Assembly: GCF_963921235.1 (NCBI RefSeq)
Contig: NC_086097.1
Coordinates: forward strand, 116,996,001 to 117,060,000
DNA: 64,000 nucleotides
Direction of reading: 5' to 3'
Source of the DNA: Mobula hypostoma
Taxonomy: Eukaryota
This document shows positions 8,181 to 58,928 of the stretch, one piece after another. The stretch's first letter is position 1. Each line of letters begins with the position of its first letter. Below the pieces are notes generated by a model. It did no database searches. It was not told the DNA's origin and worked only from the letters and a program-made list of their open reading frames with translations. The translations under genes were made by a program, and so were the position numbers.

Positions 8181-8563
8181 ATGAGTCAGAGAGTGATAGA
8201 TCCACTTAATGAGATTTTCCTGTGTATTTCTTATTCCCCGGGAAGATCCTCTGATCAAGTTGTTCACATTTCACTGTAAAACCGAGGATCATATCTGTGG
8301 TAAACCAGATATATATATGTTGTAACTGGGTTACCTGTCTGGACATGCCTGGACACGCCCCTCTGCTGACTGCTCCTGTGGCTCCTCCCACAGACCCCTG
8401 AATAAAGATGATTGTGTCACTGCTCCTCCCTCGGTCCAGGGCAGACGTGGAGCATGGACGTTGGTCCATTTACTGTTAATAAAAGCCTTTCACTATTTAC
8501 TCTACTTTCAGTCTTTTGGAGTAATTGATAGTGCATCAATTTTATTAACAGTAATTTTAAAGC

Positions 8564-9520
8564 ATGGAACATGTCCTGAGACTCAACAAGCTAGACCTCG
8601 ACCCACAAACACTTGAAGCCGGAAACGCTTTCAAACTCTGACTGGCCTGCTTCGAATCATACCGAGAGGAGATTGAAGTGACCGAGCCCACCGCGAAGCG
8701 CAGAGTTCTCCTCTCCAGGGTCAGTCCACAGGTCTACTCAATGATTAGAGACCAGCCGAGCTACAACGGTGTGATGAGCAACCTCAAAAGACAATACCTG
8801 CGGCTGGTAAACACCGTCTATGTGCGACATAGCTTAGCGACGCAGCAGCAGCGGCCCGGAGAGTTGAGCGCTGAGTTCGTCTGGGCCCTACAGACACTCG
8901 TGCGGGCCTGCAATTGCGGGGGGCTGACGGCCGAAGAGCATGTGGAGCTCCTAGTAAGAGACGCCTTCGTCACGGGGACCAGGTCAGTGTATGTGTGCCA
9001 GCGGCTGCTGGAACACGCCGATCCTACCTTACGTTCGACGATTGAGCTGGCCGACACGCTGGAGGCTGCTCTGCACAACTCTGACGCTCGCCCAGCACGT
9101 AATCTCCCAGCAGCCTTGTGGACGTCACAGACCCCACAACCCGCCAGCGAATCAACCACGGCTGCTGCCAGTCGCGAGTCCGCGAAGTGCTACTTCTGCG
9201 GACTCAAGAAGTACCCCCGGAAACGCTGCCTGGCCGAGAAGCTACCTGCTCCATCTGCGGAAAGAAGGGCTACTTCGCCAAGGCCTGTAAGTCCAAACCG
9301 CGAGCGGGATCCAGCAGCGCTGCGTGCGAGGCATGAGGGTCGCCATCTTAGCCGTCGCCATCTTGGCTGTCGCCATATTGCCTGCACGCCACCACCATGT
9401 GCAAGACATGGGGGTGGCCATCTTGGTTGGTGCCACCTCGCACCGCCTACGATCCACGGGTGCTCTCAAGGCAGCCCACTACGCCGGACCAAGACGGCGA
9501 CTCAACTCTGGCCTCCGTGA
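8564..9520 (+). pseudogene. gag: Gypsy gag (disrupted)
   Basis: ATG at 8564 is in frame with ORF 8678-9520, with an in-frame TGA at about 8639. Knuckles CYFCGLKKYPRKRC and, after a frameshift, CSICGKKGYFAKAC. Confidence 0.8.
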
Positions 9521-9558
9521 CCCTCGACTAAAGTGCTCGCCACCAGCTCGCAAGGACA

Positions 9559-12170
9559 ATGATGGACATCTTGGTGGAGGGGCGCAGGACAGGCTGCCTG
9601 TTTGATGCAGGCAGCATGGAGAGTTTTATCCACCCAGACACGGTGCAGCTTTGTGGACTCGCGATACGGCCGGTAAGTCAGTGGGTCGCCACGGCTTCCG
9701 GGTCGCATACAACAGACATCCAGGGGGGTTGTGTAGCGATGCAAGTGGTGCAGGGCACAGAATATTGAGACTTTACGTTACTGGTCATGCCTCAACTGTG
9801 TGCCCATGTGCTATTGGGGCTCGACTTCCAGAGCCACCTGAAAAGCGTGACAATGGAGTATGATGGGCCCCTCCCACCAGTCACTGTTAGAAATCCCCAG
9901 TTTTGTAGGAATACGTCACATACCCAGCTACTGACCACGCCCATATACCGATCTGCACATCCCGCCCAACATCATGCCAACTGCCACACTACAGACACCA
10001 CTTGCGGCCTCTCCACCCTCAGGATCCCTCCCCCACCGCTGTTTGCCAACCTGATCCCCGACTGTAAACCTGTGGCAACTAAGAGCAGGAGGTACAGCGC
10101 GGGGAACAGAGCTTTCATTAAGTCAGAGGTGCAGGGGTCCTCAGGGAAGGGATCATTGAAGCAAGCACAAGTCCTTGGAGGGCGCAGGTGGTCGTTGTTC
10201 GGAACGGGGAGAAGAATAGGATGGTCATGGACTATAGCCAGGCTATCAATAGGTTCACGCAGCTCAACACGTACCCTCTACCCCGCATCGCGGATATGTT
10301 CAATCAGATAGCACAGTACAAGGTGTACTCGACCATAGACCTAAAATCCGCTTACCATCAACTCCCCATCTGCTGGGAGGACCGCCCTTACACTGCCTTC
10401 AAGGCGGACGGCAGGCTTTATCACTTCCTGCGCATCCTCTTCGGTGTCACGAATGGTGTATCTGTCTTCCAGAGGGCAATGGACCGGATGGTGGACCAGT
10501 GCCAACTGAAGGCCATGTTCCCATATCTGGATAACATCACCATCTGCGGTCATGTCTGGCAGGATCACAACAACGATCTCCAAAAATTTTTCCAAGCGGC
10601 CAAAGCTTTTAATCTCACCTATAACAAGGACAAGTGTGTGTTCGGGCCCACCCGACTTGCTATCCTTGGGTGTGTCCTTAAGAACGGAGTCATTGGCCCT
10701 GACCCCAACCGTATGCGCCCCTTGTTGGAACTCCCACTTCCCAACACCGTCCGAGCACTCAAAAGGTGCCTGGGCTTCTTTTCATATTACGCCCCATGGG
10801 TCTCTAACTACGCATACAAGGCCCGCCCCCTGGTCAAGTCCACCACATTCCCCCTCTCAGCCGAGGCCCACACAGCCTTCAGCTGCATTAAAGGGGACAT
10901 TGCCAAAGCAGCAATGATTGCGATGGACGAGGCCATTCCCTTCCAAGTAGAGAGTGACGCCTCCGACTTTGCGCTGGCTGCTACCCTCAACCAGGCGGGA
11001 GAACGGTGGCGTTCTTCTCCCGTACCCTTCAAGGCCCTGAAATTCGGCACTCTGCGGTAGAGAAAGAGGCCCAGGCCATAGTGGAAGCTATCAGGCACTG
11101 GAGGCACTATCTTGCCGGCAAAAGGTTCACCCTGCTGACTGACCAGCGCTCAGTCGCATTCATGTTTAATAACCAACAGCGGGGCAAAATCAAAAATGAT
11201 AAAATTCTGAGGTGGAGAATCGAACTCTCCACCTACAACTATGACAGCATGTACAGGCCTGGGAAGCTCAATGAGCCCTCCGATGCCCTATACCGGGGAA
11301 CGTGCACCAGTGCGCAGATCAACCGGATATACGCCCTACATGTAGATCTTTGCCACCCGGGAGTCACCCGGCTTTTCCACTTTGTGAAAGCCCGGAACCT
11401 GCCTTACTCCCTTGAGGAGATCAGGACAATGACCAGGGACTGTCAAGTCTGCGCAGAGTGCAAACTGTACTTCTACCGACCCGAAAAGGCACCACTCATC
11501 AAGGCCACCCGCCTCTGTGAGCGACTGAGTGTCAACTTTAAGGGCCCCGTTCCCTCCACCGACTGCAATGTGTACTTTCTTAACGTTATCGACGAGTACT
11601 CGCTGTTCCCCTTCGCAATCCCCTGCCCCGATACCACTACCACGTCAGTTATAAAAGCCCTGCGCAAGCTCTTCACTCTGTTCGGATACCCATGCTATAT
11701 CCACAGTGACAGAGGGTCCTCGTTTATGAGTGATGAGCTGTGCCAATATCTACTGGCTAGGGGGATTGCAACTAGTAGGACCATGAGCTATAATCCCCGG
11801 GGGAATGGACAGGTGGAGAAGGAGAATGCCACGGTGTGGAAAGTCACAGTCTTAGCCCTCAGGTCAAAGGGACTGCCGGTCTCCCGCTGGCAGGAGGTCC
11901 TTCCCGAGGCACTCCACTCCATCCGCTCCCTGTTATGCACGTCCACCAATGCCACCCCTCATGAGCGGCTCTTTTCTTTTCCCTGAAAATCGACCACTGG
12001 AACCACCCTACCAACTTGGCTGACGTCCCCGGGGCCAGTGCTGCTCCGGAAACATGCGAGGAGCAATAAATACTCCCCGATGGTCTAGAGGGTTCAACTA
12101 CTTCATGCGAACCCCCAGTATGCCTGCATGGTTATATCTGATGGGCGGGAGGTCACGGCCTCCATCTGTG
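9559..12170 (+). pseudogene. pol: Gypsy pol (PR, RT, RNase H, integrase) with stops and frameshifts
   Basis: Protease CLFDAGS; RT IDLKSAYHQLPI...YLDN; RNase H ESDASDFA...VEKEAQAIV; integrase HVDLCHPG...CQVCAEC, IHSDRGSSF, GNGQVEK. Confidence 0.9.
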
Positions 12171-12765
12171 ACCTGGCGCCCGCAGGAGCACTGGGCCCCT
12201 ACCCTGAACACTCCATGGTGACTATTAACCCTGTTCCACCAATATATATACCCACGAGACACCGCGCACTCCAAGCCCTACACAGACACCACACGACACT
12301 CCCATACCGGGCGCGACGCACACACACGAGGGATTACTGACGCCTAACGTGCTGGCACCTCAAGTCAGGCCGGAGCCAACACAACCACCGTCGCCGATGC
12401 AATCACCACCGGTGCTGCATAGATCACAGCGACGGACTCGACCGCCTGATAGACTTAACCTGTAAATATACTTGTAAATATTGTCAGTCACTTCACCCCG
12501 TGGGACTCTTCTTAAAAAGGAGGGGTGAATGTGGTAAACCATATACATATGATTACCTGTCTGGACATGCCTGGACATGCCCCTCTGCTGACTGCTCCTG
12601 TGGCTCCTCCCACAGACCCCTGAATAAAGATGATTGTGTCACTGCTCCTCCCTCAGTCCAGGACAGACACAGCATGGACGAGGACCCATTTTACTGTTAA
12701 TAAAAGCCTTTCAGTACTTACTGTACTTCCAGTCTTTTGGAGTAATTGATAGTGCATCAATATCA

Positions 12766-26022: not shown

Positions 26023-29000
26023 TTAGCATCTAGATAGACAATCAGCGATCACATTATCTTTACCCTTAATATGAGTGATCAAAATATTATACTCCTGTAA
26101 CATTAAACTCCAATTTAATAATCTTCTATTTATGTTTTTCATCTTACTCAAAAACACTAATGGATTATGATTGGTATAAACTGTGAGTGGCTTATGTGTA
26201 GTACTAACATACACTTCAAAATGTTGTAAAGCCAAATCAAGAGATACTAATTCCTTTTCTATTGTTGAATAATTTCTTTAATGGGCATTAAACTTCTGAG
26301 AAAAATAAGCTACTGGATGATAAACTTCATCACCACCATCTCTTTGAAGTAACACTCCTCCTGCAGCTTCATCACTAGCATCTACAGCTAACGAAAATGG
26401 TTTTTCAAAGTCAGGAGATTTAAGTACAGGTTGACTACATATTGTAGTTTTCAATTTATCAAATGCCTCCTGACAAGACTCTGTCCAAACAAACTTTTCA
26501 TTTTTCTTCAAGAGATTAGTTAATGGAAGAGCAATGTTCACAAAATCCTTACAAAATTTTCTATAATATCCTACCAAACCCAAGAATCTTCTCAGAGTTT
26601 TTCTACCAGTTGCAGTAGGCACTTCTAAAATTGCCTGAACTTTTGCCTGAACGGTTGCTAATTTTCCCTGACCCACAACATAACCAAGGTAAGTCACTGT
26701 GGCATGGCCAAATTCACTTTTAGCTAAGTTAATAGTTAAGTTAGCTTTTGAAAATCTCTCAAATAGTTTCTCCACCGCAGTAATATGTGCTTCCACGTAT
26801 TATTTCCTGTAACAAAATCATCAATATAGGCATTTGTATCTTTTAATCCCTGAATCACACTATTAATCACCCTCTGAAAAGTACCTGGTGCATTCTTCAT
26901 CCCAAAGGGAAGAACATTATATTCATACAACCCAGATGGGGTTACAAATGCAGGTATCTCTCTACCTCTATCCATGAATGGAACACACCAATAACCTTTT
27001 AACAAATCAATTTTTGTAAGGAATTTGGCTTGCCCAGCTTTATCCATACAATCATCTACCCTAGGGATTGGATATGCATCAATTTTTGTCACAGCATTCA
27101 CCTTCCTGTAAAACAGCTCACCAAATACTGGAATTGGTTGCAGTGGGGCTACTGGAGTAACTTGATTAGGTTTACCCACAATTTGATACTTATGACATGT
27201 TCTACAAATTGTCGCCACATCTTTTCTTAAACTAGGCCAATAAAAATGTTTTGAAACCTTGTTCATAGTTTTCTTCACACCTAAATGACCACCCAAAGGA
27301 ATACTATGAACCATAGTTAAAATCTCATTTCGATAAATTTTAGGAACTACTACCTGATGATTATCTTCCCATTCCTCACTAGCAGGAATCGTAGGTGATC
27401 TCCACTTTCTCATTAATACTCCCTTTTCAAAATAATATCCTACTGGCACTTTTTCAATTTCACTATCTGGAAGAGCTTGCTCCTTTAATTTAACTATCTC
27501 AGTATCTCTACCCTGCTCTGCTGTCATCTCCTTCCAAGATAGAGACAAATCTTCCTGGTCAGTCTTACTACCAAAATCCTGACCAAATAATGTAGGTAAG
27601 AAAGTTTCTGATACATCCTCAAAATTCGAATCTTGAGTTGAACAATCATAGGTAACAAACTCATCCTTTACATCAGTCTTTTTAGACATAGCTCTTGTTA
27701 CAACACAGGAAGAATCTGTGTTAGAATCCCTCTGTGGTTCCTCAGAATTAGGATTTATTGTTAAATGCACTTCAGGAAAAACTTGTCCACCTGCTAAGTC
27801 ATTCCCTAACAAAAGAGAAACATCATTCACAGGTAAACTGGATTGTAGTCCTACTTTAACAACCCCTGTAACTAATCCTGACCTTAAATTTACTCTATGT
27901 AAATATACTGGCATAAAGGCACTCCCAACTCCTCTTATATAATTTACCTCATCACTAAACTTTAGTACATTGTCTAATATTAGTGATTGAGAAGCTCCAG
28001 TATCTCTAAGTATTTTTATTGGTACTGAATTGGACCCTTCTTTCAAGGATGCAAATGGTTCTGTTATAGAAGTTTCACATCCCTTCTTAACTTGGTCAGA
28101 CTCTGACACATCTTCATTCGTATTTATCAAACTCTGTGAACTTACAGGTTTTTCAATATGCGGCACACAAGCATCTGGGACGGCTTCTTTCTCTTTCTTT
28201 TTCAATTGAATGCAGTTAGCCACTACATGTCCAGGTTTCTTACAATAATTACAAATAATACCAAAATGTCTTTCCTTCACATGTCTCCCTTCATCCTTAC
28301 CTTTCTCACTAACTTCAAATTTAATTTTTGGTTTACCTTGACTCTCTGTGCTATTTTTCCTTTTAAAAGTTCTACCTGGAGAAAATTTATTCTTATGATT
28401 TAGAGCATACTCATCAGCTAATTTAGCAGTCTCCTGCAATGTAACAGTGTCCCTTTCATTTAAGTATGTTCTCACTTCAACAAGAATGCTTCTTTTAAAT
28501 TCCTCCAGTAAAATCAACTCTTTTAATTTATTATACTCCCTATTCACATTTTTAGAGGAAACCCATCTCTCAAAACACACAGATTACATATAGGCAAATT
28601 CTACGTAAGTTTTTTCCACTGATTTCTTCAAATTTCTGGATCTTTCTCTACACACTTCCGGAACCACTTATACGCCTTTAATATATGCTGTTTAACAATA
28701 TCATAATCCAGTGCTTGCTCAGCATTTAAAGCTGTATAAACTTGTTGTGCCTTGCCTTTAATGACACTTTGTAACATCACTGGCCATTGCTCTTTAGGCC
28801 ACCGTAAACTCAGAGCAACAGTCGAAATGCTGGAAATATTTGTCCACTTCAGCTTCATTAAATGGAGGAGCCAAAATAACCTCACAGCTAGCAATAAACT
28901 GTTTCTTAGAACCTGAAGACTGATTTCCCATCCTTAATTTCTCCATTTTTAACTCAAATTTCCTCTGGCTTTCAGATTCTCTTTCTTCAAATTCCCTTAA

Positions 29001-29512: not shown

Positions 29513-32323
29513 AGGTTCTGAACTTAAAGAAGGGTAACTTTGAAGGTATGAGACGTGAATTAGCTAAGATAGACTGGCAAATGACACTTAAAGGGTTGAC
29601 AGTGGATATGCAAAGGCAAGCATTTAAAGATCGCATGGATGAACTACAACAATTGTTCATCCCAGTTTGGCAAATTAGCCAGAAAAAGTGGTTCACTTGA
29701 GGACTGGGAGAAATTCAGAGTTCAGCAGAGGAGGACAAAGGGCTTAATTAGGAAGGGGAAAAAAGATTATGAGAGAAAACTGGCAGGGAACATAAAAACT
29801 GACCGTAAAAGCTTTTATAGATATGTGAAAAGAAAAAGATTGGTTAAGACAAATGTAGGTCCCCTACAGACAGAAATAGGTGAATTGATTATGGGGAGCA
29901 AGGACATGGCAGACCAATTGAATAATTACTTTGGTTCTGTCTTCATTAAGGAGGACATAAATAATCTTCCGGAAATAGTAGGGGATAGAGGGTCCAGTGA
30001 GATGGAGGAACTGAGGGAAATACATGTTAGTAGGGAAGTGGTGTTAGGTAAATTGAAGGGATTAAAGGCGGATAAATCCCCAGGGCCAGATGGTCTGCAT
30101 CCCAGAGTGCTTAAGGAAGTAGCCCAAGAAATAGTGGATGCATTAGTGATAATTTTTCAAAACTCTTTAGATTCTGGACTAGTTCCTGAGGATTGAAGGG
30201 TGGCTAATGTAACCCCACTTTTTAAAAAAGGAGGGAGAGAGAAACCGGGGAATTATAGACTGGATAGCCTGACATCAGTGGTGGGGAAACTGCTAGAGTC
30301 AGTTATCAAAGATGTGATAACAGCACATTTGGAAAGCGGTGAAATCATCGGACAAAATCAGCATGGATTTGGGAAAGGAAAATCATGTCTGACGAATCTC
30401 ATAGAATTTTTTGAGGTTGCAACTAGTAGGGTGGATAGGGGAGAACCAGTGGATGTGGTATATTTGGATTTTCAAAAGGCTTTTGACAAGGTCCCACACA
30501 GGAGATTAGTGTGCAAACTTAAAGCACACGGTATTGGGGGTAAGGTATTGATGTGGATAGAGAATTAGTTGGCAGACAGGAACAAAGAGTAGGAATAAAC
30601 GGGACCTTTTCAGAATGGCGGGCAGTGACTAGTGGGGTACCGCAAGGCTCAGTGCTGGGACCCCAGTTGTTTACAATATATATTAATGACTTGGATGAGG
30701 GAATTAAACATAGAAACATAGAATCATAGAAAATAGGTGCAGGAGTAGGCCATTCGGCCCTAAATGCAGCATCTCCAAGTTTGCCGATGACACGAAGCTG
30801 GGCGGCAGTCTTAGCTGTGAGGAGGATGTTAAGAGGATGCAGGGTGACTTGGATAGGTTAGGTGAGTGGGCAAATTCATGAGAGATGCAATTTAATGTGG
30901 ATAAATGTGAAGTTATCCACCTTGGTGGCAAGAACAGGAAAACAGATTATTATCTGAATGGTGGCCGATTAGGAAAAGGGGAGGTGCAACGAGACCTGGG
31001 TGTCATTATACACCAGTCATTGAAAGTGGGCATGCAGGTACAGCAGGCGGTGAAAAAGGCGAATGGTATGCTGACATTTATAGCAAGAGGATTCGAGTAC
31101 AGGAGCAGGGAGGTACTACTGCAGTTGTACAAGGCCTTGGTGAGACCACACCTGGAGTATTGTGTGCAGTTTTGGTCCCCTAATCTGAGGAAAGACATCC
31201 TTGCCATAGAGGGAGTACAAAGAAGGTTCACCAGATTGATTTCTGGGATGGCAAGACTTTCATATGATGAAAGACTGGATGAACTAGGCTTATACTCGTT
31301 GGAATTTAGAAGATTGAGGGGGGATCTGATTGAAACGTATAAAATCCTAAAGGGATTGGACAGGCTAGATGCAGGAAGATTGTTCCTGATGTTGGGGAAG
31401 TCCAGAACGAGGGGTCACAGTTTGAGGATAAAAGGGAAGCCTTTTAGGATTGAGATTAGGAAAAACTTCTTCACACAGAGAGTGGTGAATCTGTGGAATT
31501 CTCTGCCACAGGAAACAGTTGAGGCAAGTTCATTGGTTATATTTAAGAGGGAGTTAGATATGGCCCTTGTGGCTAAAGGGATCAGGGGGTATGGAGGGAA
31601 GGCTGGTGCAGGGTTCTGAGTTGGATGATCAGCCATGATCATACTAAATGGCGGTGCAGGCTCGAAGGGCCGAATGGCCTATTCCTGCACCTATTTTCCA
31701 TGTTTTCTGTGTTTCTATTACTAGTCAGTGAAAATGTCAAAGCAGTACTCAGTCAGGACAGACTGGAGAACTTGACTAGTGAGGCACAATGGGTGGATTT
31801 GAGAAATAAGAAATGTATGACCACGTTAATAGGGCTATATTACACATCACCCAACAGTCCTAAGGATCTAGATAAACAAATTTATAGAGAGAATGCAGAC
31901 CGTTGCAAGAAACATAAGGTTGTTATTGTAATTGATTTTAACTTTCCACATATTGATTGGGAATCTTATTCTGTAAAAGGACTAGATAGGATAGAGTTTG
32001 TCAAATGTGGGCAGGAAAATTCCCTTCATCAGTATGTGGAAGTCCCAGTGAGAAAACATGTGATACTGGATCTGCTATTAGGGAATGAGACAGGGCAGGT
32101 GACAGAAATTTGTGTAAAGGTACACTTTGCATCCAGTGTCCACCATGCCGTTAGTTTCAAATTAAATACACAAAGTGATAGGTCTGATCTGTGGGTTGAG
32201 ATTCTAAATTGGAGAAAGGCCGATTTTGATGGTATCAGAAATTATCTGTCAAGTATGGATTGGGAGAGGCTGTTTTCTGGCAAAGGTGCTGCACGTGCAC
32301 CTATTTTCTATGTTTCTATGTTT
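29513..32323 (+). mobile_element. Composite CR1 insertion in the Gmr1 5' LTR
   Basis: TSD CTAAAA at 29507-29512 and 32324-32329. CR1 ORF2 (KSPGPDGLHPRVLKE, NQHGF, YLDFQKAFDKVPH, FADD) to a first tail at about 31717, then about 570 bp of CR1 endonuclease sequence, then a second tail. Confidence 0.9.
30709..30760 (-). mobile_element. 52-bp CR1 tail-only insertion, antisense inside the CR1 RT
   Basis: CATAGAAACATAGAATCATAGAAAATAGGTGCAGGAGTAGGCCATTCGGCCC flanked by TSD TAAA (30705-30708 and 30761-30764). Confidence 0.85.
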
Positions 32324-32729
32324 CTAAAACACAAATGAAAACCTTAACCGGAAGTTAACTGCTATGCGGCCATTAAACAAACTGTCACTCGGTACAGGTT
32401 CTTAAAGCGATAAATGCGAAAACAGTTCTTAAAGCGGTAAAGTCAAATGCAGTTCTTAAAATCGTAAATTCGAAAGTCCACCAGATTTATACATTCAATT
32501 GGGAGAGACTTCTCTGGAGAAGGATTTCTCCATAGACGCGACTTTCCTGTTGGTTCTGTCCAAAGGATTCACGATGAAGGAAATAAATGGCTTAAAACAA
32601 CTGACCTTAATTTCTAGAGCAAATTGGTGGGAAAATTACATCAGGTGATCTCCAAAAGACCATTACATCATTCTCACAATAAAGTCACAAGATCTCCTTG
32701 AGGTATGCAACAATCTATTTGCCACCACA

Positions 32730-39335: not shown

Positions 39336-40914
39336 GTTGTGACTCGATCGATAAGAATGCTCAGAAACAGAAGCCCCAGAATGATATTGCAGTATTCAGA
39401 TTTACGATTGTGCTCTCTTAGTTGGAATCATTCCATGAGACTTTTACTGAAGTGGTCACAATCAGAGTGCAGGTTTCAGATGGTAGATGGGTGACCATCA
39501 GGAGAAGTGAGGGTTTCCCTGCATCCATTCCTCTTAGCAGCAAGTATACTCTTTTAGGTTCTGCTGGGGGGTGGAGGGGATGTCCTATCAGGGCACAGCA
39601 GCAGTGCGGAAGGCAAGAGCGATAGTGATAGAAGACTCAATAGTCAGGGGGAAGGACAGGAGATTCTATGGCTCTGAAAAAGACACCAGGATAGTGTGTT
39701 GTCTCTCAGGTGCCAGGGCAGGGGTTTTAAACATTTTTTTGCAGTGGACCCCTTTGGCATTCTGGTGAAGCCGATGGACTACTTTCTCAGAATAATGTGT
39801 TTCAATATATAAAATAAAATACACAGAATTACAAAAGAAACCAATTCTATTGAAATACAGTTATCAAGATATTTTTTAAAAACACATTTGTGATATACTA
39901 TTACATGTGTTTCTTTATTAATGCATTACATAACAAGACAATACATTTAAAATATAACAGCAAGTAGCAAGTTAAGATTAATTTTTAATCTTTAATGACA
40001 TATCAGTGTGAAGCTGTTGTTGCTCAGCTTGATATAGAACATTAAACTGTGGGGTGGTCTTTGACAAAGCAACATGCATGTTATTTTGGACATCCAAACG
40101 ACTTTGATCTTTTGTTTTAATGGATGCAAGTGCTGAAAATCCTGATTCGCAACGATATGTTGTTGCAAATGGAATTAAACCTTCCTTAGCTCACTTTAAA
40201 AAGGGATAGGTTTCTCTCCCGGAGCACCAGAATTCCCCAAAGGTTTTTGTGTTAAACTCCAATTGTAGTAAGTTTTGTGCTAAGATCAACTCATCTTTGG
40301 CTAAATCAACATCTTCGATACAGTTTATATCAGAAAGAAAAGGATAGCGAATCCCATGGTTCAACTTCGATATCATCAAGACGGAAATAGCGTTTGAAAG
40401 CATTCTGAAGTGTTTCCAGGTGTTTACAGCTGTTCCTCTTCGAAGGGGTTGACAGAGAATTTTGTACCACAACTCCATCTTGATAAAGCACTTCCTCTCG
40501 TATTTGAAGATTTGCAAACATGTCCCCTTCGCCTCTCTTCTTCCATATTGGCAGCTTGGCCAAGAAAGCTGGTAATTTTTCAGTAGCATCCATAATAGTG
40601 ACCTGCTTCTAATAAAGATGATGTAGTGGTGTGCTACACACAGCGCTAAAATAACCACACGTAGTCGGTGAGTTAGAGTTGCGATGAAAAGAGATTTATT
40701 CAAACTTTGCAGCCTGCTTTAAAGCCTTCCCGTTCCCGCCCTCCCTGGAGCGGGACTGCTGTGGGGAATGCATATTCCCAGACCCTTTCTGCACGCGAGA
40801 TTTTCCCCCTGCTGGTGAAGATGGCCTGGCGCCCTTTTTGGGGCCGGCCCTCTGCCTGCGCGTGCTGTTGTGAGCCGGTTCGTGTGTGCCAGAAAGTGGG
40901 TCGCCACATAATCC

Positions 40915-43900
40915 CTCCCCAGAACCGAAGATACCTCCCCCAATGTCCACAGTCTGGATCGGCCTCTGTTTGGGCAGTCTGCCCCTGCGCCGCGGTGCCT
41001 GAGCCTGGACCGGCTGTGCCAAGTCCACATGGGCCGGTTTGAGTCTGTCCACCGTGAAAACCTCCTCTCTCCCCCCAATGTCCAGCACGAACGTGGACCC
41101 GTTGTTCCTGATCACCTTAAACAGCCCCTTGTAGGGCCGCTGTAACGGTGCCCGGTGTCCGCCCCGTCCGTGCTGTGAAGTGGCGATGGGGGCCAGGTTA
41201 CCGAGCCTCTCCCGTAGTCTGTCCAGGATTGCTGTGGGTTCTTCCTCTTGCCCCCTTGGGGCTGGTATGAACTCTCCTGGGACGTCCAGGCGTGCGCCGT
41301 ACACCAACTCGGCTGACGAGGTGTGCAGATCCTCTTTGGGCGCCGTGCGGAATCCGAGCAGGACCCAAGGAAGCTCGTCCACCCAGTTAGGCCCCTCCAG
41401 GCGGGCCATGAGAGCCAATTTCAGGTGACGGTGGAAACGCTCCTCTAGTCCGTTCGACTGTGGGTGGTCGGCAGTTGTGTGGTGTAGCTGAGATCCTAAA
41501 AGGTTGGCCATAGCCGACCACAGGCTGGAGGTGAACTGGGCGTCCCTGTCGGAGGTAATGTGGGCCGGTACCCCAAAGCGGGCTACCCAGGTTGCGATCA
41601 GTGCTCGGGCGCAGGATTCGGAGGTGGTGTCGGTGAGCGGGACTGCCTCTGGCCATCTGGTGAACCGGTCTATCATAGTTAGGAGGTACCGCACTCCTTG
41701 TGACACTGGCAGGGGCCCCACGATATCCACATGGATGTGGTTGAACCTCCGGCGGGTGGGTTCGAACCGCTGCGGTGGAGCCTTGGTGTGCCGCTGCACC
41801 TTGGCCGTTTGGCAATGCATGCACATTTTGGCCCATTCACTGACCTGTTTACGCAGTCCATGCCACACGAACCTGTTGGAGACCAGCCGGACGGTTGTCC
41901 TGATGGAGGGGTGTGCTAAGTTGTGAATGGACTCGAAAACCCGCCGGCACCAGGCTGCTGGGACGACGGGGCGGGGTTGGCCGGTAGCTACGTCACACAG
42001 TAGGGTCCTCTCACCTGGGCTTACGGGGAGGTCTTGGAGCTGCAAACCGGAGACTGCAGTCCTGTAACTGGGGATCTCAGTGTCTGCCTGCTGTGCCTCT
42101 GCCAGCGCTGCATAGTCCACCCCCTGGGACAGGGCCTGTATGGTGGGTCTGGATAATGCGTCCGCCACGACGTTGTCCTTTCCAGAGAGATGCCGGATGT
42201 CCGTCGTGTACTCGGAGATGTAGGACAGATGTCGCTGCTGGCGGGACGACTAGGGGTCGGACACCTTCATGAACGCAAAGGTAAGCGGTTTGTGGTCTGT
42301 GAACACGGTGAAGGGCCTACCTTCTAAGAAGTACCTGAAATGCCGGATTGCCAGGTATAGTGCCAATAGCTCCCGGTCGAAAGCACTGTATTTGAGTTTG
42401 GGTGGTCGTAGGTGTTTGCTGAAGAACGCCAGGGGTTGCCAGCGACCCTCGATGAGTTGTTCCAGCACTCCACCACCGCTGTGTTGGATGCCTCCACCGT
42501 GAGGGCAGTAGGAACATCCGTTCTGGAGTGCACTAGCATCGCGGCGTTTGCCAAGGCTTCTTTGGTTTTAACGAAAGCGGTTACGGCCTTTTCGTCCCAG
42601 GTAATGTTCTTGCCCTTACCCAACATTAGAGTGAATAGGGGTCGCATGGTTCGGGCTGCTGAGGGGAGGAAACGGTGGTAGAAATTCACCATACCCAAGA
42701 ACCCACGAATTCCTGCAAGCCTTTGAATCTGTTGGGTCGGGGGAAGTTGCAGACCGCGTCTACCTTGGCGGGCAGCGGGGTTGCCCCGTCTTTAGTAATC
42801 CTGTGGCCCAGGAAGTCGATGGTCCGAACTGGCATTTGGCTGGGTTGATGGTACGGCCGAATTCACTCAGGCGGGAGTAGAGCTGGTGGAGGTGGGACAG
42901 ACGCTCCTGCCGACTACTGCTGGCTATGAGGATGTCGTCCAAATAGATGAATGCAAAGTCCAGGTCGCGTCCCACCGCGTCCATTAGCCCCTGGAAAGTC
43001 TGTGCGGCATTCTTTAGACCAAATGGCATTCGGAGGAATTCGAGAAGTCCGAACGGGGTGATAAGTGCTGTTTTGGGGATGTCGTCCGGATGTACAGGGA
43101 TTTGATGGTATCCCCGGACGAGGTCTACCTTGGAAAAGATCCTTGCGCCGTGTAGGTTTGCTGCGAAGTCTTGAATGTGCGGCACAGGGTAGCGGTCTGG
43201 CGTTGTAGCCTCGTTCAGTCTGCGGTAGTCACCGCATGGTCTCCAGCCCCCCGTTGCCTTGGCTACCATGTGAAGGGGGGAGGCCCATGGGCTGTCGGAC
43301 CATCGTATGATCCCCAATTCCTCCATCTTTTTGAACTCCTTCTTCGCCAGTTGGAGCTTGTCCGGGGGAAGCCTTCAAGCACGGGCGTGGAGGGGTGGTC
43401 CCTGGGTCGGGATGTGGTGCTGTACTCCGTGTCTGGGCATGGCTGCCGTGAACTGCGGTGTCAGCACCGATGGGAAATCCGCCAGGACCCTGGTGAATTC
43501 ATCGTGGGACAGCGTGATGGAGTCCAGGTGTGCGGCTGGCAACTGTGCTTCACCCAGGGAGAACGTTTGAAAAGTCTTGGCGTGGACTAATCGCTTCCCT
43601 TGCAGGTCGACCAGCAGGCTGTGGGCTCGTAGAAAATCCGCCCCCAGGAGTGGTTGGGCCGCGGTGGCCAGTGTGAAGTCCCACGTGAACTGGCTGGAGC
43701 TGAACTGTAGCCGTACCGTGCGGGTGCCGTAGGTTCGTATTGTGCTGCCATTAGCGGCCCTCAGGGTGGGTCCCGGTTCTCTGTTGCAGGTATCATAACT
43801 CGTTGGAGGTAAGACGCTGATCTCCGCTCCGGTGTCGACCAAAAAGCGGCGTCCCGACTGCTTGTCACAGACGTACAGGAGGCTGTCCTGATGGCCGGCC

Positions 43901-43940
43901 GCCGTAGCCATCAGTGACGGCTGGCCCTGGCGTTTCCCGG
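40915..43940 (-). pseudogene. pol: CsRn1-type pol (PR-RT-RH-IN) with frameshifts and stops
   Basis: [58 protein letters not shown]...CMHCQ, HVDIVGP, ITSDRD, SNGLEERFH. Confidence 0.9.
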
Positions 43941-44614
43941 GAATTTGCAGGGTGGTCTGCAGCGGCGGGCCTCTGTGCCCCACCGCTGGTGGTAGAAACA
44001 CTATTGTTCGTTGGGCTCCTCACTCCCATCACCGGGTTTTGTAGGCTCTGCTGCCGGGCCTGGTCTGGTCTGTTGTTGGGCACGCGGCTTGGTGATCTGT
44101 GCGACGGGCGCCTCTCTCTCTTTCCTGGCAATCCACAGCACATCTGCTCGGGCTGCCACCTCCCGGGGGTTGCTGAAATCTGCGTCGGACAGCAGCAGGC
44201 ATATGTCCTCGGGCAGTTGCTCTAGGAACGCCTGCTCAAACATGAGGCAGGGTTTGTGTCCTTCAGCCAGGGCCAGCATCTCGTTCATTAATGCTGACGG
44301 CGGCCTATCTCCCAAACCATCCAGGTGCATTAAGCGGTGTTCTCGTTCACGCCGTGGGAGTCCGAAAGTCCTTATGAACAGGGCTTTGAATACTGTGTAT
44401 TTGCCGTCCTCCGGGGGCGATTGTATAAACTCCTCAACTTGTGCAGCTGTCTCCTTGTCGAGTGAGCTCAGCACGTAGTAGTAGCGAGTGGACTCCGAGG
44501 TTATCTGCCGAATGTGGAATTGAGCTTCTGCTTGTTCGAACCATAAATGGGGTCGCAGCGTCCAGAAGCTTGGCAGTTTTAATGAAACTGCGTGAACAGA
44601 TGCAGTGTCGGTCA
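43912..44614 (-). pseudogene. gag: CsRn1-type gag (premature TAG at 44001-44003)
   Basis: MTDTASVHAVSLKLPSFW...LWFEQAEAQF...LGDRPPSALMNEM...FLEQLP, followed by the CHCC knuckle. Confidence 0.85.
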
Positions 44615-47600
44615 TCTCTGGTCCAAATATCGTTTGGGCCGTTGGGGTCACCAATTGTAGCGGTGTGCTACACACAGCGCTAAAATAACCACTCGTAGTC
44701 GGTGAGTTAGAGTTGTGATGAAAAGAGATTTATTCAAACTTCGCGGCCTGCTTTAAAGCCTTCCTGTTCCTGCCCTCCCTGGGGTGGGACTGCTGTGGGG
44801 AATGCATATTCCCAGACCCTTTCTGCGCGCGGGACTGTTCCCCTGCTGCTGAAGATGGCCTGGTGCCCTTTTTGGGGCCAGCCCTCTGCCTGCGCGCGCT
44901 GTTGTGAGCTGATTCGTGTGTGCCAGAAAGTGGGTCGCCATAATGATGACTTTTATGGCTGTTGACAAAGCTACCTTCAGGGTTGTTGGAAGAGCCTTTG
45001 TTGCCAGTGCACGTCTGTATAAAAAACAATGAGTGACTATGACATGAGAAGTTTCCTTTTTCACTGAAGTAGCAAAACCAGATGTATTACCAAGCATTGC
45101 AGGAGCTCCACCTGTGCAAAGATATGATGATTTTCTTTCCAATCAAAGTTTTGTTTGGCAAGAAAACTTTTTACCATTTCCTAAGCATCGACAGCCTTTG
45201 TAATTTCCAAAAGGGACTGACAAAATAAGAATTCTTCTTTGATGGTGTCAGTATGTGCATAACAATCAAAAACAAGGATCTGACTACACTGAGAGATATC
45301 TGTAGTTTCATCCAGTTGCAGACTGAAATGGGAATTTCGAGGCTGTCAATTCCTCGATGGCCTTCTTCAAAATGTTAAATGAAATACCAGCTATTCTAGA
45401 AGGTATCACATTATTTGTTTCCAGTTTTTTTTCTCTGTTCCAGTCCACAAGCCAGCTCGATCATTTCCAGTGTACATGGATTTACTAAAGCCTCTCCAAT
45501 AGTGTGGGGATTCTCTTGTTTGACAATCCAGTATATGTCTTTATAGGATGCTTCAAGAAAAGGGTTTTGTGAAATGGCAAATCCAAGTGTTGGAGGTGTC
45601 CCAGCTTTTTCAAATTGTATTTCCTTCGCAAAGAAAACTGCATATTTAGATGCATTTTCAGGATAGACAGATGTGAAGTTCTCTTTCAATTTTGCTGGCT
45701 TTATAATTCTGTTCTTAAGAGTTCTTCCATCCGCAATATCCTGAAATGGGAGGGTGAGCAGTGAGAGATCGTGGTACATATTGGTATCAATGACATAGGT
45801 AGAAAAAGGTTGAGGTCCTGAAAGCAGGATATGGAGAATTAGGATGGAATCTGAGAAACAGGACCTCAAGGGTAGTAATCTCAGGATTGCTGCCTGTGTC
45901 ACGTGACAGTGAGTGTAGGAATAGAATAGAATATCAATGCATGGCTGAAGGATTGGAGCAGGGGCCAGGGATTCATGTTTCTGGATCATTGGGACCATTT
46001 CTCGGGCAGGTGTGATCTTTACGAAAAGGACGAGTTACATTTGAATTCAAGGGGGACCAACATCTTGGCGGGGAGGCTTGCTAATGCTATTGGAAGGTTT
46101 AAACTAGATTTGCAGGGGGTTGGGAACCGAAGTGAAGAGGCAGAGGATGGGGAGGTTGGAGCACAAGTAGAGACAGCTTGTAGGGAGTTTGTGAGGAAAA
46201 TAGGCAGATGACAGAGCAAAGATGCACTCAGCCTGATGGTGAGATGTATCTATTTTAATGCAAGGAGTATCATAAACAAGGCTGATGAACTTAGAGCGTG
46301 GATCAATATGTGGAACTATGTCGCTGTGGCCACTACAGAGACTTGGATGACTCAGGGACAGGAATGGCTGCTGAGTGTGCCAGGCATTAGATGTTTCAAA
46401 AAAGACAGGGAGGGAGCCAAAAGATGTGGAGACATGATATTGCTAATCAGGGATAGTGTCACAGCTGCAGAAAAGTCATGGAGGGTTTGTCTACTGAGTC
46501 AGTGTGGGTGGAAGTCAGAAACAGGAAGGGGACAATAACTCTAATGGGTGTTTTTTATAGGGGCATCGAGAAGCAGATTATGGAATGGTGTAATAATGAT
46601 AGGGTTGTTGTGATGGGTGATTTTAACTTTGCTAATATTGATCGGCATCTCCTTTGGGCAAGGGGTTTAGATGGGGTGGAGTTTGTTAGGTATGTTCAGG
46701 AAGGTTTCTTGATGCAATATGTAGACAAGCCAACTAGAGGAGAGGTACTTGATCTGGTACTGGGAAATGAACCTGGTCAGGTGTCAGACCTCTCAGTGGA
46801 AGAGCATTTTGGAGGTCGTGACCACAACTATATCTCCTTCACCATAGTGCTGGAGAGGGTTAGGAGCAGACAATTTGGGAAAACATTTAATTGGGGTAGG
46901 GGGAAATATGGTGCTATTAGGCAGGAACTTGGGAACATACATTGGGAGCAGATGTTCTCAGGGAAATGCACAGCAGAAATATGGCAAATGTTCAGGGAAA
47001 ATTTGCATGATGTTCTGCAGAGGTATGTTCCAATGAGGCAGGGAAAGGATGGTAGAGTAAAAGAACTATGGTGTACAAAGGATGTGGAAAATCTAATTAA
47101 GAAGAAAAGAAAAGCTTATAAAAGGTTCAAGAAACTAGATACTGATCGAGTTCTAGAAAATTACAAGATTGCCAGGAAGGAGCTGAAGAATGAAATTAGG
47201 AGAGCTAGAAGGGGCAATGAGAAGGCCTTGGTGAGTAGTATTAAGGAAAACCCCAAGGCATTCCACAAGTATGTGAAGAGCAAGAGGATGAGCCGTATGA
47301 GAATAGGACCCATCAGGAGTGAGAGTAGAAAAGCATTAAATTAAATAAGTCACCAGGACCCGATGAGCTATACCCCAGGCTACTGTGGGAAGCAAGGAAG
47401 GAGATTGCTGAACCTCTGGCGATTATCTTTGCATCATCAATAGGGATGGGAGAAGTACCAGAGCATTGGAAGGTTGTAAATATTGTTCCTTTGTTCAAGA
47501 AAGGGAGTAGAGATAGCACAGGAAATTATAGACCAGTGAGTCTGACTTCAGTGGTGGGCAAATTGTTTGAGAAGATTCCGAGAGGCAGAATTTATAAGCA

Positions 47601-56814: not shown

Positions 56815-58352
56815 TTGTCTGTCTGTCTAGGTACCATTTCCGATGCGGACTTTGGTGAACATGGTTTTCCATATAGATCTATCCTTTGTTTTTGGGATGA
56901 CTTCTATTTCCTCGATGTGTAGCCACCTGGCTATGCTTTTGATGTACGTAAGCTGAGGTCTTCCTCTAGGTTTACTCCCCTCAATCTTTCCAGAGAGTAT
57001 GAGTTTTTCTAGTTTATCTTTCCACATGATGTGTCCTAGGAATCTGAGTTGTCTTTCTCTTATTATTGGTATGAGCGATTGAACTGCTTGGGCTCTTCTG
57101 GGAACTTCTTCATTTGATGTGTGCGTGGTCCATGATATTTTTAACATTCTCCTGTAGAACCATAATTCAGCTGCTTCTAGTCTCTTTTCCATTGCTGGAG
57201 AAATGGTCCAGCATTCACTTCCATAAGTCAGGATAGAATAAATGTAGCACTGCAGTATTCTGTTTTTAGCGTGCATGCTCATCTTTCTGTCTGTTAATAT
57301 GGTCTTCATTTTTTGGAAAGCTTCTTTCGCCATTGCTATTCTGTATTTGATATCCGTGTCGCACCTGCCATTACTTGTTATTAGGCTGCCAAGATATTTG
57401 AATTTGTTGACTTGTTTGATGTTTGTATTTCCGATCTTGATCAGACATTGTGGGATGTTTGTCTTTCTGAAGATGACCATGCTTTCTGTCTTCTTGGTGT
57501 TGATTGAGAGGCCTCTGTGATTACTTTCTGCTGCCACTATAGTGAGTAGTTCTTGAAGTTTTGTTTCTGAGTCAGCTGCTAGTACGATGTCATCAGCATA
57601 TCTGATGTTATTTTTATTATGGGCTCCAATTGTGAATCCTTTGATGTCTTTGATACTTCTGAAGATATTTTCACTACACAGGTTGAATAAGTTTGTCGAA
57701 AAGACACATCCTTGCCTGGATCCTCTCATGATATTCACATACTCACTCACTTCTCCTTCTATTCTGATGGATGCTGTCTGGTCCCAGTGTAATTTTCTTA
57801 AGAAATGTATATCTTTCCCATCTATGTCAAGATCTTGAAGCATTTCCAGAAGATCTTGCTGTCTGACAGTATCAAAAGCTTTCGTATAGTCAATGAAACA
57901 TAGGTAGATGTCTTTTGGTACCTGGATGGCTCGTTCACAGATCATCCGTAGCATGAAAATTGCATTTCTGGTTCCAGTGTTTTCCACAAAGCTGTACTGT
58001 TCTTTACTGATTTCTGGTTTTATACAGCATCTTGCTCTCATCATGATTACTCTGAGAATAACTTTTGCCACGTGGCTCATCAGGCTTATTGTACGATGTA
58101 ACTCACATTCTGTTGCTCCCTCTTTCTTTGGAAGTGTGATGAACACTGATTTACTTAAATCATCAGGTATCTCCCCATGATCATAGATTTCATTTGCTAT
58201 TTCTGTTATTTTCTTTAGTCCAAAATCTTCTAAGGTCAGTATCATTTCAACAGCAATGTTGTCTGGACCAGTTGCTCTGTTATGTTTAGTTTTATTTACG
58301 GCTGCTGTAATTTCTGATCCATAAAGACCTTCAGATAAAGATCCATAATGGA
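56815..58352 (-). mobile_element. 5'-truncated RTE-clade LINE
   Basis: (AGAC)n tail directly after the stop codon. 9-bp TSD CTTCAGATC at 56806-56814 and 58353-58361. Confidence 0.9.
56827..58317 (-). CDS. RTE reverse transcriptase, uninterrupted frame of about 495 codons, N-terminally truncated
   Basis: ATGPDNI, HRTISLMSH, FIDYTKAFD, RQGCVFS, IRYADD, FKYLGS, LTYGSECW, GKIEGSKPRGRP. No stops to the C-terminus. Confidence 0.8.
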   Translation of the reverse strand, partial: SEITAAVNKTKHNRATGPDNIAVEMILTLEDFGLKKITEIANEIYDHGEIPDDLSKSVFITLPKKEGATECELHRTISLMSHVAKVILRVIMMRARCCIKPEISKEQYSFVENTGTRNAIFMLRMICERAIQVPKDIYLCFIDYTKAFDTVRQQDLLEMLQDLDIDGKDIHFLRKLHWDQTASIRIEGEVSEYVNIMRGSRQGCVFSTNLFNLCSENIFRSIKDIKGFTIGAHNKNNIRYADDIVLAADSETKLQELLTIVAAESNHRGLSINTKKTESMVIFRKTNIPQCLIKIGNTNIKQVNKFKYLGSLITSNGRCDTDIKYRIAMAKEAFQKMKTILTDRKMSMHAKNRILQCYIYSILTYGSECWTISPAMEKRLEAAELWFYRRMLKISWTTHTSNEEVPRRAQAVQSLIPIIRERQLRFLGHIMWKDKLEKLILSGKIEGSKPRGRPQLTYIKSIARWLHIEEIEVIPKTKDRSIWKTMFTKVRIGNGT

Positions 58353-58928
58353 CTTCAGATCCATAAAGTGTAAAAGAGAGGTGAGAGTAGATATCAGACT
58401 GCTGGAAAACGATGCTGGAGAAATAGTAATGGGGGACATGCAAGTAGTGGATAAACTGAATATATTTTGCATCAGTCTTCACTGTGGAAGACACTAACAG
58501 TATGGTGGAAGTTTCAGGTGTCATGGGGTGTGAAGTGTGTGTGAAGTTATCATAACTAGAGAGAAGGTTCTTGAGAAACTAAAAGGTCTGAAGGTAGATA
58601 TGTCACCTGGACCAGATGGTGAACACTCCAGAGTTCTGAAAGAGGTAGCTGAAGAGATTGTGGAGGCATTAGTAATGATCTTTCAAGAATCACTAGATTT
58701 TGGAATGGTTCCAGAAAATTGGAAAATTGCAAATGTCACTCCACACTTCAAGAAGGGAGAGAGGCAGAAGAAAAGAAACTATAGACCAGTTAGTCTGACC
58801 TCTGTGATTGGGAAGATGTTGGAGTTGATTGTTAGAGATGAGGTCTCAGGGTACTTGGAGGCATATGATAAAATAGGCTATAGTCAGCACGGTTTCCTTA
58901 AGGGAAAATCTTGCCTGATTGATCTAAA

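Follow-up and report, generated by a model that had tools for sequence, protein, structure and literature searches.

A clade of animal Gypsy retrotransposons outside the chromoviruses carries a self-priming signature in which the LTR is complementary to the primer-binding site

The window analysed here is a stretch of 64,000 nucleotides from Mobula hypostoma (NC_086097.1), and all positions refer to it unless a locus is named. A Ty3/Gypsy element lies at 8296-12759, flanked at both ends by ATATC, a 5-bp target duplication, and shows the traits of that group: TG..CA LTRs, target duplication, polypurine tract and the order gag-PR-RT-RH-IN. The copy is old and broken, with 15 mismatches in 229 aligned LTR columns, plus indels, and with stops and frameshifts in the gag, protease, RT/RNase H and integrase regions; the acidic residues of RNase H are visible in its frames. 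The gag region gave look-alikes of Retrotrans_gag and zf-CCHC at 0.91-0.92, which we treat as a lead only, and the closest named proteins to the element are from rays and sharks (71-86%). The features are:

8291-8295, no strand: left target-site duplication (5 bp), identical letters at 12760-12764
8296-8538, + strand: 5' LTR, 243 nt, TG..CA
8401-8407, + strand: TATA-like box, where alignment of the sister subfamily shows a canonical TATA; function predicted
8430-8436, + strand: initiator-like site, with predicted transcription start at 8433
8454-8469, + strand: 6-bp hairpin immediately 5' of the arm in the window subfamily; predicted fold
8470-8484, + strand: arm, the likely self-primer end, which pairs with the PBS; AATAAA at 8478-8483
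8485-8488, + strand: post-arm letters, with predicted cut at 8484/8485; start of the second helix in relatives
8491-8533, + strand: inner R/U5 stem-loop; predicted fold
8539, + strand: one-letter spacer (A) between LTR end and PBS
8540-8554, + strand: PBS, complementary to the arm, without TGG
8564-9300, + strand: gag, broken by an early stop and a frameshift in the first zinc knuckle; two CCHC knuckles
10122-11060, + strand: reverse transcriptase frame (YLDN motif) and RNase H start; Pfam RVT_1, 5e-22
10958-11986, + strand: RNase H and integrase core frame without chromodomain; Pfam RT_RNaseH, rve
12514-12525, + strand: polypurine tract, four letters 5' of the 3' LTR
12530-12759, + strand: 3' LTR, 230 nt; arm copy at 12691-12705, AATAAA at 12699-12704
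12760-12764, no strand: right target-site duplication

The two LTRs of the window copy differ in a cluster of letters that separates subfamilies (8446-8466 versus 12668-12690), and the target duplication is intact; template switching or gene conversion is the likely origin of this mixture. LTRs of two types are also found in L119, L262 and L265.

A sequence-only reading of the window had proposed that no TGG follows the 5' LTR and that the PBS position is instead a 15-nt complement of the element's own LTR, including AATAAA and unchanged in the 3' LTR. Both statements were borne out on comparing the letters, in that the LTR is followed by a single A (8539) and then by the PBS at 8540-8554, which is the exact reverse complement of 8470-8484, and the arm recurs unchanged at 12691-12705. 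The chance of an exact 15-nt match within a 243-nt LTR is about 2e-6, given the base composition and allowing six start offsets. The segment 8425-8580 has a predicted fold with z = -4.9, equalled by none of 200 shuffles, and the 5' arm, 55 nt from the PBS, is predicted to form an in-cis hairpin of -27 kcal/mol. Beside this duplex a second helix, present in sister copies, amounts to just 2 bp in the window copy by strict count.

Thirty copies from the same genome that were picked by their junction, with a query that is biased, all lacked TGG. A fairer sample was obtained from 20 copies picked by Pol protein, one of which had no 5' end; among the 19 scorable copies at least 13 of the 15 pairs were present in 18, all 15 were present in 11, and TGG was present in none, just as it was absent from all 32 curated junctions. 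The arm and PBS of the sister subfamily differ from those of the window at several places yet pair over 16 nt, and single copies too carry two-sided changes affecting both arm and PBS. The family therefore has no normal TGG site, and the complementarity, rather than being private to one copy, is family-wide and accompanied by compensatory changes, two points that the sequence-only reading had left to be settled. Mismatches between arm and PBS in single copies had been considered as a test of templating and were dropped, being due in part to chimeric LTRs. In tRNA-type Gypsy controls collected with an integrase profile (20 loci), TGG was found at all 15 clear LTR ends, and self-complementarity did not exceed 8 nt in any of the 15. 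The inverted repeat of L052, which has no LTR pair, was discarded, and at L080:2789-7203 two elements of the clade appear to be nested or adjacent in opposite orientation.

To follow the pairing outside the genome, a 48-protein alignment was used to gather 87 loci from metagenome and genome contigs. No gag start was present in 31 of these and 9 lay at a contig edge; 47 were scored, 8 of them proved to be false gag hits, and 39 remained. A duplex of at least 10 bp in the same register was found in 36 of the 39, a count in which many loci are copies of the same families; the other three were decayed. Among the 36, the duplex beat the best of 20 shuffles in 31, was perfect without exceeding the shuffles in two, and was found separately in three. 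Duplex length is 15-16 bp in the Mobula family and 11-20 bp in the relatives.

Twenty-five family representatives were then compared, and given that these were chosen after the pairing had been seen, their 'own' scores are conditional, the 36 of 39 being the unconditioned count. Watson-Crick pairs occupy positions 1-12 in 24-25 of the 25 families and positions 13, 14, 15, 16 and 17 in 23, 20, 17, 12 and 7, respectively. On average the PBS makes 12.8 of 13 pairs with its own LTR arm and 7.6 of 13 with the arms of other families, and at pairs 7-13, outside the A-rich end, the own score is 169 of 175 versus 48% across families. There are at least 24 different 13-nt PBS sequences among the 25 families, each fitting its own LTR, and just 4 of 600 cross-family combinations reach 12 of 13, even if some columns of the PBS show a bias toward one letter when families are compared (at pairs 7-11, for instance, it is found in 15-19 of 25).

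The geometry around the duplex is equally constrained. The spacer between the LTR CA and the PBS is one letter (A in 21 families, T in 4), and the 3' end of the arm always lies opposite the first PBS letter, which is the register required of a primer. The last three letters of the arm are A in 23-24 of 25 families; next comes G in 15 or A in 6, and then C, C in 21. A canonical poly(A) hexamer (AATAAA or ATTAAA) stands at the arm end in 15 families, and the gag start falls 14-44 nt past the PBS start in most of the 25. A second helix of at least 4 bp, beginning at the first post-arm letter, is present in 19 of 25 families, against a shuffled mean of 5.5 and with 0 of 1000 shuffles as high; its fourth pair is T-A in 16 and A-T in 3, a two-sided change. 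A search of 8200-8700 against Rfam gave no family at E up to 1. At the level of protein, not of the junction, relatives occur in rays, sharks, corals, a damselfly, a spider, a copepod and Trichinella, and none was found among the viral contigs searched. The loci L111-L117 are clade elements within contigs assigned to bacterial genome bins, into which animal DNA has most likely been carried over. Taken over these families, the self-priming signature is real and clade-wide.

Where the transcript begins determines how much of it would precede the arm. In the sister subfamily a canonical TATA (25 of 25 parsed loci, of 30) stands at the place of the window's TATA-like box, with an initiator-like site 31 nt downstream, and on this basis transcription is predicted to start at about 8433, which would put the arm about 37 nt inside the transcript. 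The window subfamily has a TATA variant starting with A in 16 of 16 parsed loci (of 30), with A at the start position in 14; the letter at 8433 itself is G in the 5' LTR and A in the 3' LTR and most copies. The TATA-like box that the sequence-only reading had noted upstream of the complement thus has a canonical counterpart at the 8401 position of the sister subfamily. The accompanying suggestion that the arm lies well past the TATA agrees with the predicted TATA and initiator in the Mobula family and does not extend to the 25 relatives from outside the genome, in which no TATA at a fixed distance was seen.

A Tf1-like start at 8468 was our first idea, and an initiator-like run does occur there in the window subfamily; moreover, pairing ends at 15-17 nt in most families, as expected of a short primer. 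It was downgraded after the comparison with the sister-subfamily TATA and initiator. A step in depth at 8470, considered as a start signal, was explained by U3 differences between subfamilies. Presumed-RNA contigs from six runs cover the element, with no poly(A) tail among their listed loose ends, and two pattern searches for poly(A)-tailed retrocopies returned none. One locus, L200:2742-6784, has the shape of an RNA copy, beginning at the equivalent of 8467, three letters 5' of the arm, and ending 15 nt before the LTR end; it has neither tail nor duplication, and no other start of this kind occurs among 90 junction loci, a number that includes duplicates.

An independent record of the pairing is provided by insertions in which the LTR end runs directly into the complement of the arm and U3. 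Such fold-back junctions, in which the sequence after the LTR end is complementary to the arm, were found at 34 and 6 loci with two patterns, and at none with control patterns read backwards. All 40 were mapped, and exact 5-bp duplications flank 23. LTR-only palindromes of about 405 bp, consisting of a full LTR, the spacer and then inverted arm and U3 to the LTR start, account for 21 of the 40 (14 with exact 5-bp duplications, three with one mismatch, four with none readable). Another three consist of a solo LTR that makes a 29-nt excursion into inverted U5, and the duplications of all three are exact. Rearranged proviruses number eight (duplications exact in six, with one mismatch in two), and the ends of eight more could not be resolved. 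These products were likely inserted by integrase. Judged by eye, the U3 subtype is common to both halves in 25 of 26 readable loci, with at least five subtypes represented; therefore, the fold-backs arose several times.

Given that the fold-back insertions are joined at the arm and PBS, the pairing likely acts during reverse transcription, with RT likely switching template there, and the insertions can be regarded as natural records of reverse-transcription intermediates. They need only the complementarity of arm and PBS, and are no proof of an RNA self-primer or of its length. In most, the inverted copy reaches the LTR start, as would fit a plus-strand DNA template. L304 alone ends at the predicted transcription start, and does so at a microhomology; an apparent stop at that position in L302 is actually a later repeat insertion. 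Four loci (L300, L301, L314 and L320) continue through the polypurine tract into the 3' internal region. Among loci L274-L325 there are perfect 175-bp inverted repeats around a 56-nt loop, and inverted repeats of the fold-back kind could be sources of double-stranded RNA or fragile sites. No description of palindromic by-products of this kind was found in the titles and abstract starts of the literature searched.

From these observations we infer a transcription start, a cut, a primer and strand transfers that together would amount to Tf1-like self-priming, and we consider this account probable. The 5' end of the RNA would fold back, with arm 8470-8484 pairing to the PBS at 8540-8554, and a primer end would then be freed, likely through cleavage by the element's RNase H just 3' of the final A of the arm (8484). 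With a start near 8433 and a single cut, the primer would be about 52 nt, its last 15 nt paired. Extension by RT would next cover the spacer and 54 nt of U5/R; the 15-25 nt that remain from the cut up to the poly(A) site would serve for the transfer to the 3' R, and the 3' copy would be the template from which arm and U3 are restored. When the primer is in turn copied into plus strand, the PBS would be rewritten with the arm as its source, and the two would be kept in step; such rewriting, if real, may not extend to pair 16, where a T-G wobble is retained in 8 of the 19 Pol-picked copies. Given a primer that is the element's own RNA, copying could attach the complement of the arm and of upstream sequence to the LTR end. 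Formation of the arm/PBS duplex is predicted to conceal the 5' AAUAAA and to leave the 3' copy partly open, the hexamer having a predicted unpaired probability of 0.00-0.01 at the 5' end and 0.35-0.58 at the 3' end, and masking of the poly(A) signal is likely a side role. The earlier suggestion that the element may prime from its own RNA is thus supported by a family-wide, covarying pairing, priming itself being deduced from sequence. Against this account, a 52-nt primer would produce plus strands reaching 37 nt past the PBS and so hinder the second strand transfer, a problem that would be avoided if RT stops or if a second cut trims the primer.

Other readings of the same duplex have to be set beside this one. 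The sequence-only reading had named both a cleaved 5' hairpin and the 3' R end acting in trans as possible primers. In the latter case the arm copy of the 3' R, whether on the same RNA molecule or on another one packaged with it, would be cut after the arm and prime at the PBS, so that the 5' R is copied whole; the arm is indeed identical in both LTRs, a full R would be left for the first strand transfer, and L300, L301, L314 and L320 show that a plus-sense 3' end can engage at the arm. Against it, the 5' arm is only 55 nt away and has its predicted cis hairpin, the strand that completes the second helix is located close to the LTR end in the Mobula family, likely past the poly(A) site, so that no such helix would form on the 3' end, and most fold-backs stop at the LTR start, as the 21 LTR-only palindromes illustrate. 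We regard the 3' primer as unlikely, and of the two options the cleaved 5' hairpin is favoured. A different suggestion limits the duplex to masking of the 5' poly(A) signal, or to control of gag translation, and makes a host RNA of another kind the primer. Full pairing of the hexamer in the 5' fold and partial opening in the 3' fold would suit this idea, as would the canonical hexamer at the arm end in 15 families and the closeness of the gag start to the PBS in most. The 10 families of 25 that have no canonical hexamer nevertheless keep the duplex and its fixed register to the LTR end, the facing of the arm end and the first PBS letter is unnecessary for masking, and a host primer would need to change with every family. 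We therefore give little credence to masking as the sole function, and of the earlier proposal that the hairpin masks the 5' signal what stands is a plausible second role.

If self-priming is accepted, the cut could still be due to a host nuclease, or to self-cleavage of the RNA, in place of the element's RNase H. Host 3'-processing factors bind at the poly(A) hexamer, with which the arm terminates, and the junction letters are conserved, with A at the last three positions and C, C beyond in most families. Cleavage at poly(A) sites, however, falls 10-30 nt downstream of the hexamer, not directly after it, and the Rfam search of 8200-8700 gave no match. In Tf1 the cut is made by RT (PMC5341516), and we hold another cutter to be very unlikely. 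The least credible reading, to which we assign almost no weight, is that a tRNA end or tRNA half primes and that the LTR match is an old accident. The biased PBS columns could be cited in its favour, and the host tRNA comparison spanned nine tRNA-Lys variants, a tRNA locus search having returned 30 loci, all Lys(TTT); within that set the best PBS match is 5 nt, which answers in part the earlier call for a comparison with host tRNAs. TGG is missing, however; the 25 families have at least 24 PBS sequences, every one of which fits its own LTR, and 12 of 13 pairs are reached in only 4 of 600 cross pairs. A match to a host tRNA fragment seems very unlikely, because the PBS changes between families in step with the LTR.

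While Tf1-like self-priming is the reading we prefer, the element does not belong with the chromoviruses. Among 240 relatives the RT motif reads YLDN in 159 and YLDD in 35; no paper combining YLDN with gypsy and retrotransposon was found in the literature searched, and text searches of supplements were also negative. Trees were built from 74 rows (a quick tree, with two short rows dropped) and from 24 rows (a careful tree), with all outgroups taken from the Mobula genome. Both trees place the self-arm rows in a single group with full support, separate from the chromoviruses; in the 24-row tree the support is 100/99 for 13 self-arm rows and 100/100 for five chromovirus rows. A position of the self-arm clade as sister of the chromoviruses was not rejected by the AU test (p = 0.098). 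Pfam detected no Chromo domain in the five window frames or in four long relatives, with a match at 6e-11 in the control L182, in keeping with the sequence-only reading, which had seen no chromodomain; the two CCHC knuckles it had described are present in 94 of 103 long relatives, the first being split by a frameshift in the window copy. GP[YF] was absent from the last 220 aa of all 103 long relatives.

On its markers the self-arm group may be a Cigr-1-like clade, a name that we offer as a lead only; the LTRs of Cigr-1 measure 245 bp and its single ORF has about 1210 codons, which resembles the relatives studied here. The markers shared with the clade of Ciona intestinalis Cigr-1 are two CCHC knuckles, loss of GPY/F and the absence of a chromodomain and of env (PMC2774666), and a marker row in the supplement of that paper adds an integrase after RNase H. 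The same source lists this set likewise for part of the Osvaldo clade, so that it is not unique, and the protease flap, mostly MATS-like here, is TANG in its Cigr-1 row. In the Saci2/lennie clade the target duplication is 4 bp, versus 5 bp here, and PBS and LTR both vary between Saci2 families, which are assigned different tRNAs (PMC12471100). More generally, tRNA-primed Gypsy clades have a PBS starting with TGG 0-5 nt past the LTR, of which the self-arm family has none (0 of 32 junctions, 0 of 19 copies).

The literature ties self-priming to Tf1/sushi, plant Tcn1 and TAR elements (PMC6317226, PMC4600332, PMC5341516, PMC10085805, PMC11042837, PMC5006619, PMC5445492, PMC4558846, PMC3670739, PMC6238403, PMC8556966, PMC2774666, PMC3601003, PMC12471100, as far as the portions available to us go). 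As in Tf1, Tf2 (Schizosaccharomyces pombe), Tj1 and other fission-yeast elements, the PBS here complements the element's own LTR and has no TGG (PMC4600332). Tf1 priming requires a multi-duplex structure and a cut by Tf1 RT, and the extra helix beside the primer duplex and the RT-made cut that we propose are further likenesses to that group (PMC10085805, PMC5341516). Elements of the Tf1 group, however, use the extreme 5' end of their RNA as self-primer and possess a chromodomain, whereas here the arm is predicted to lie about 37 nt inside the transcript and there is no chromodomain; also unlike the Tf1 group, the duplex ends in a poly(A) hexamer, 55 nt before the PBS.

Sushi-type chromoviruses of the same genome offer a direct comparison: of 13 chromodomain loci, 10 have an LTR pair, and a self-arm is recognisable in 4 of these 10. 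Their arm lies 109-292 nt before the LTR end and far from AATAAA (in L199 about 27 nt past a TATA-like run), and their RT is just 26-30% identical to that of the self-arm family, from which they are separated as a clade with full support. For plant Tcn1 chromoviruses and TAR copia elements, self-priming has been predicted from an LTR complement of the PBS of at least 10 nt (PMC6317226), and on these predictions self-priming is therefore not confined to Tf1/sushi; they concern other hosts and lineages, and the accessible part of that paper mentions no link to a poly(A) hexamer. The Conserved Hairpin Site of fungal GalEa (PMC5445492) and the polypyrimidine site of Dictyostelium Skipper (PMC5006619) are likewise tRNA-less primer sites, of unexplained mechanism, and both papers report no LTR complement of the site; here the complement lies in the LTR.

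It is thus likely that this element and about two dozen related families, outside the Tf1 group, start copying with a piece of their own RNA. A broader proposal, which we offer tentatively and would not rely upon, is that a widespread animal Gypsy clade evolved self-priming apart from the chromoviruses with the poly(A) signal inside R as the primer end. A single RNA switch would then serve to silence the 5' poly(A) signal, to mark the cut and to provide a long primer with a cap, at the price of 405-bp palindromes inserted by integrase. Self-priming has so far been treated as a mark of Tf1/sushi chromoviruses, plus the predicted Tcn1 and TAR cases. A second large self-priming group, if true, would make tRNA-free priming common among animal retrotransposons, and a primer inside R, if true, would be a new joint solution to priming and to suppression of the 5' poly(A) signal. 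Titles and abstract starts in the openly accessible literature searched contained no report of self-priming in a non-chromoviral animal Gypsy clade, and a prior mention elsewhere is possible. The clade would be overlooked or wrongly labelled by annotation tools for which a tRNA site is obligatory.

The window also holds other elements. At 26736-28583 on the minus strand a 615-aa frame has a weak SCAN match and then an integrase zinc finger before RT, a Gmr1-like domain order. Another LTR-type element, with a DUF7041 gag-like frame and an integrase frame, lies at 40696-44729, also on the minus strand, and LINE-type endonuclease and RT frames occur at 31577-32338, 46457-47344 and 56827-58578.
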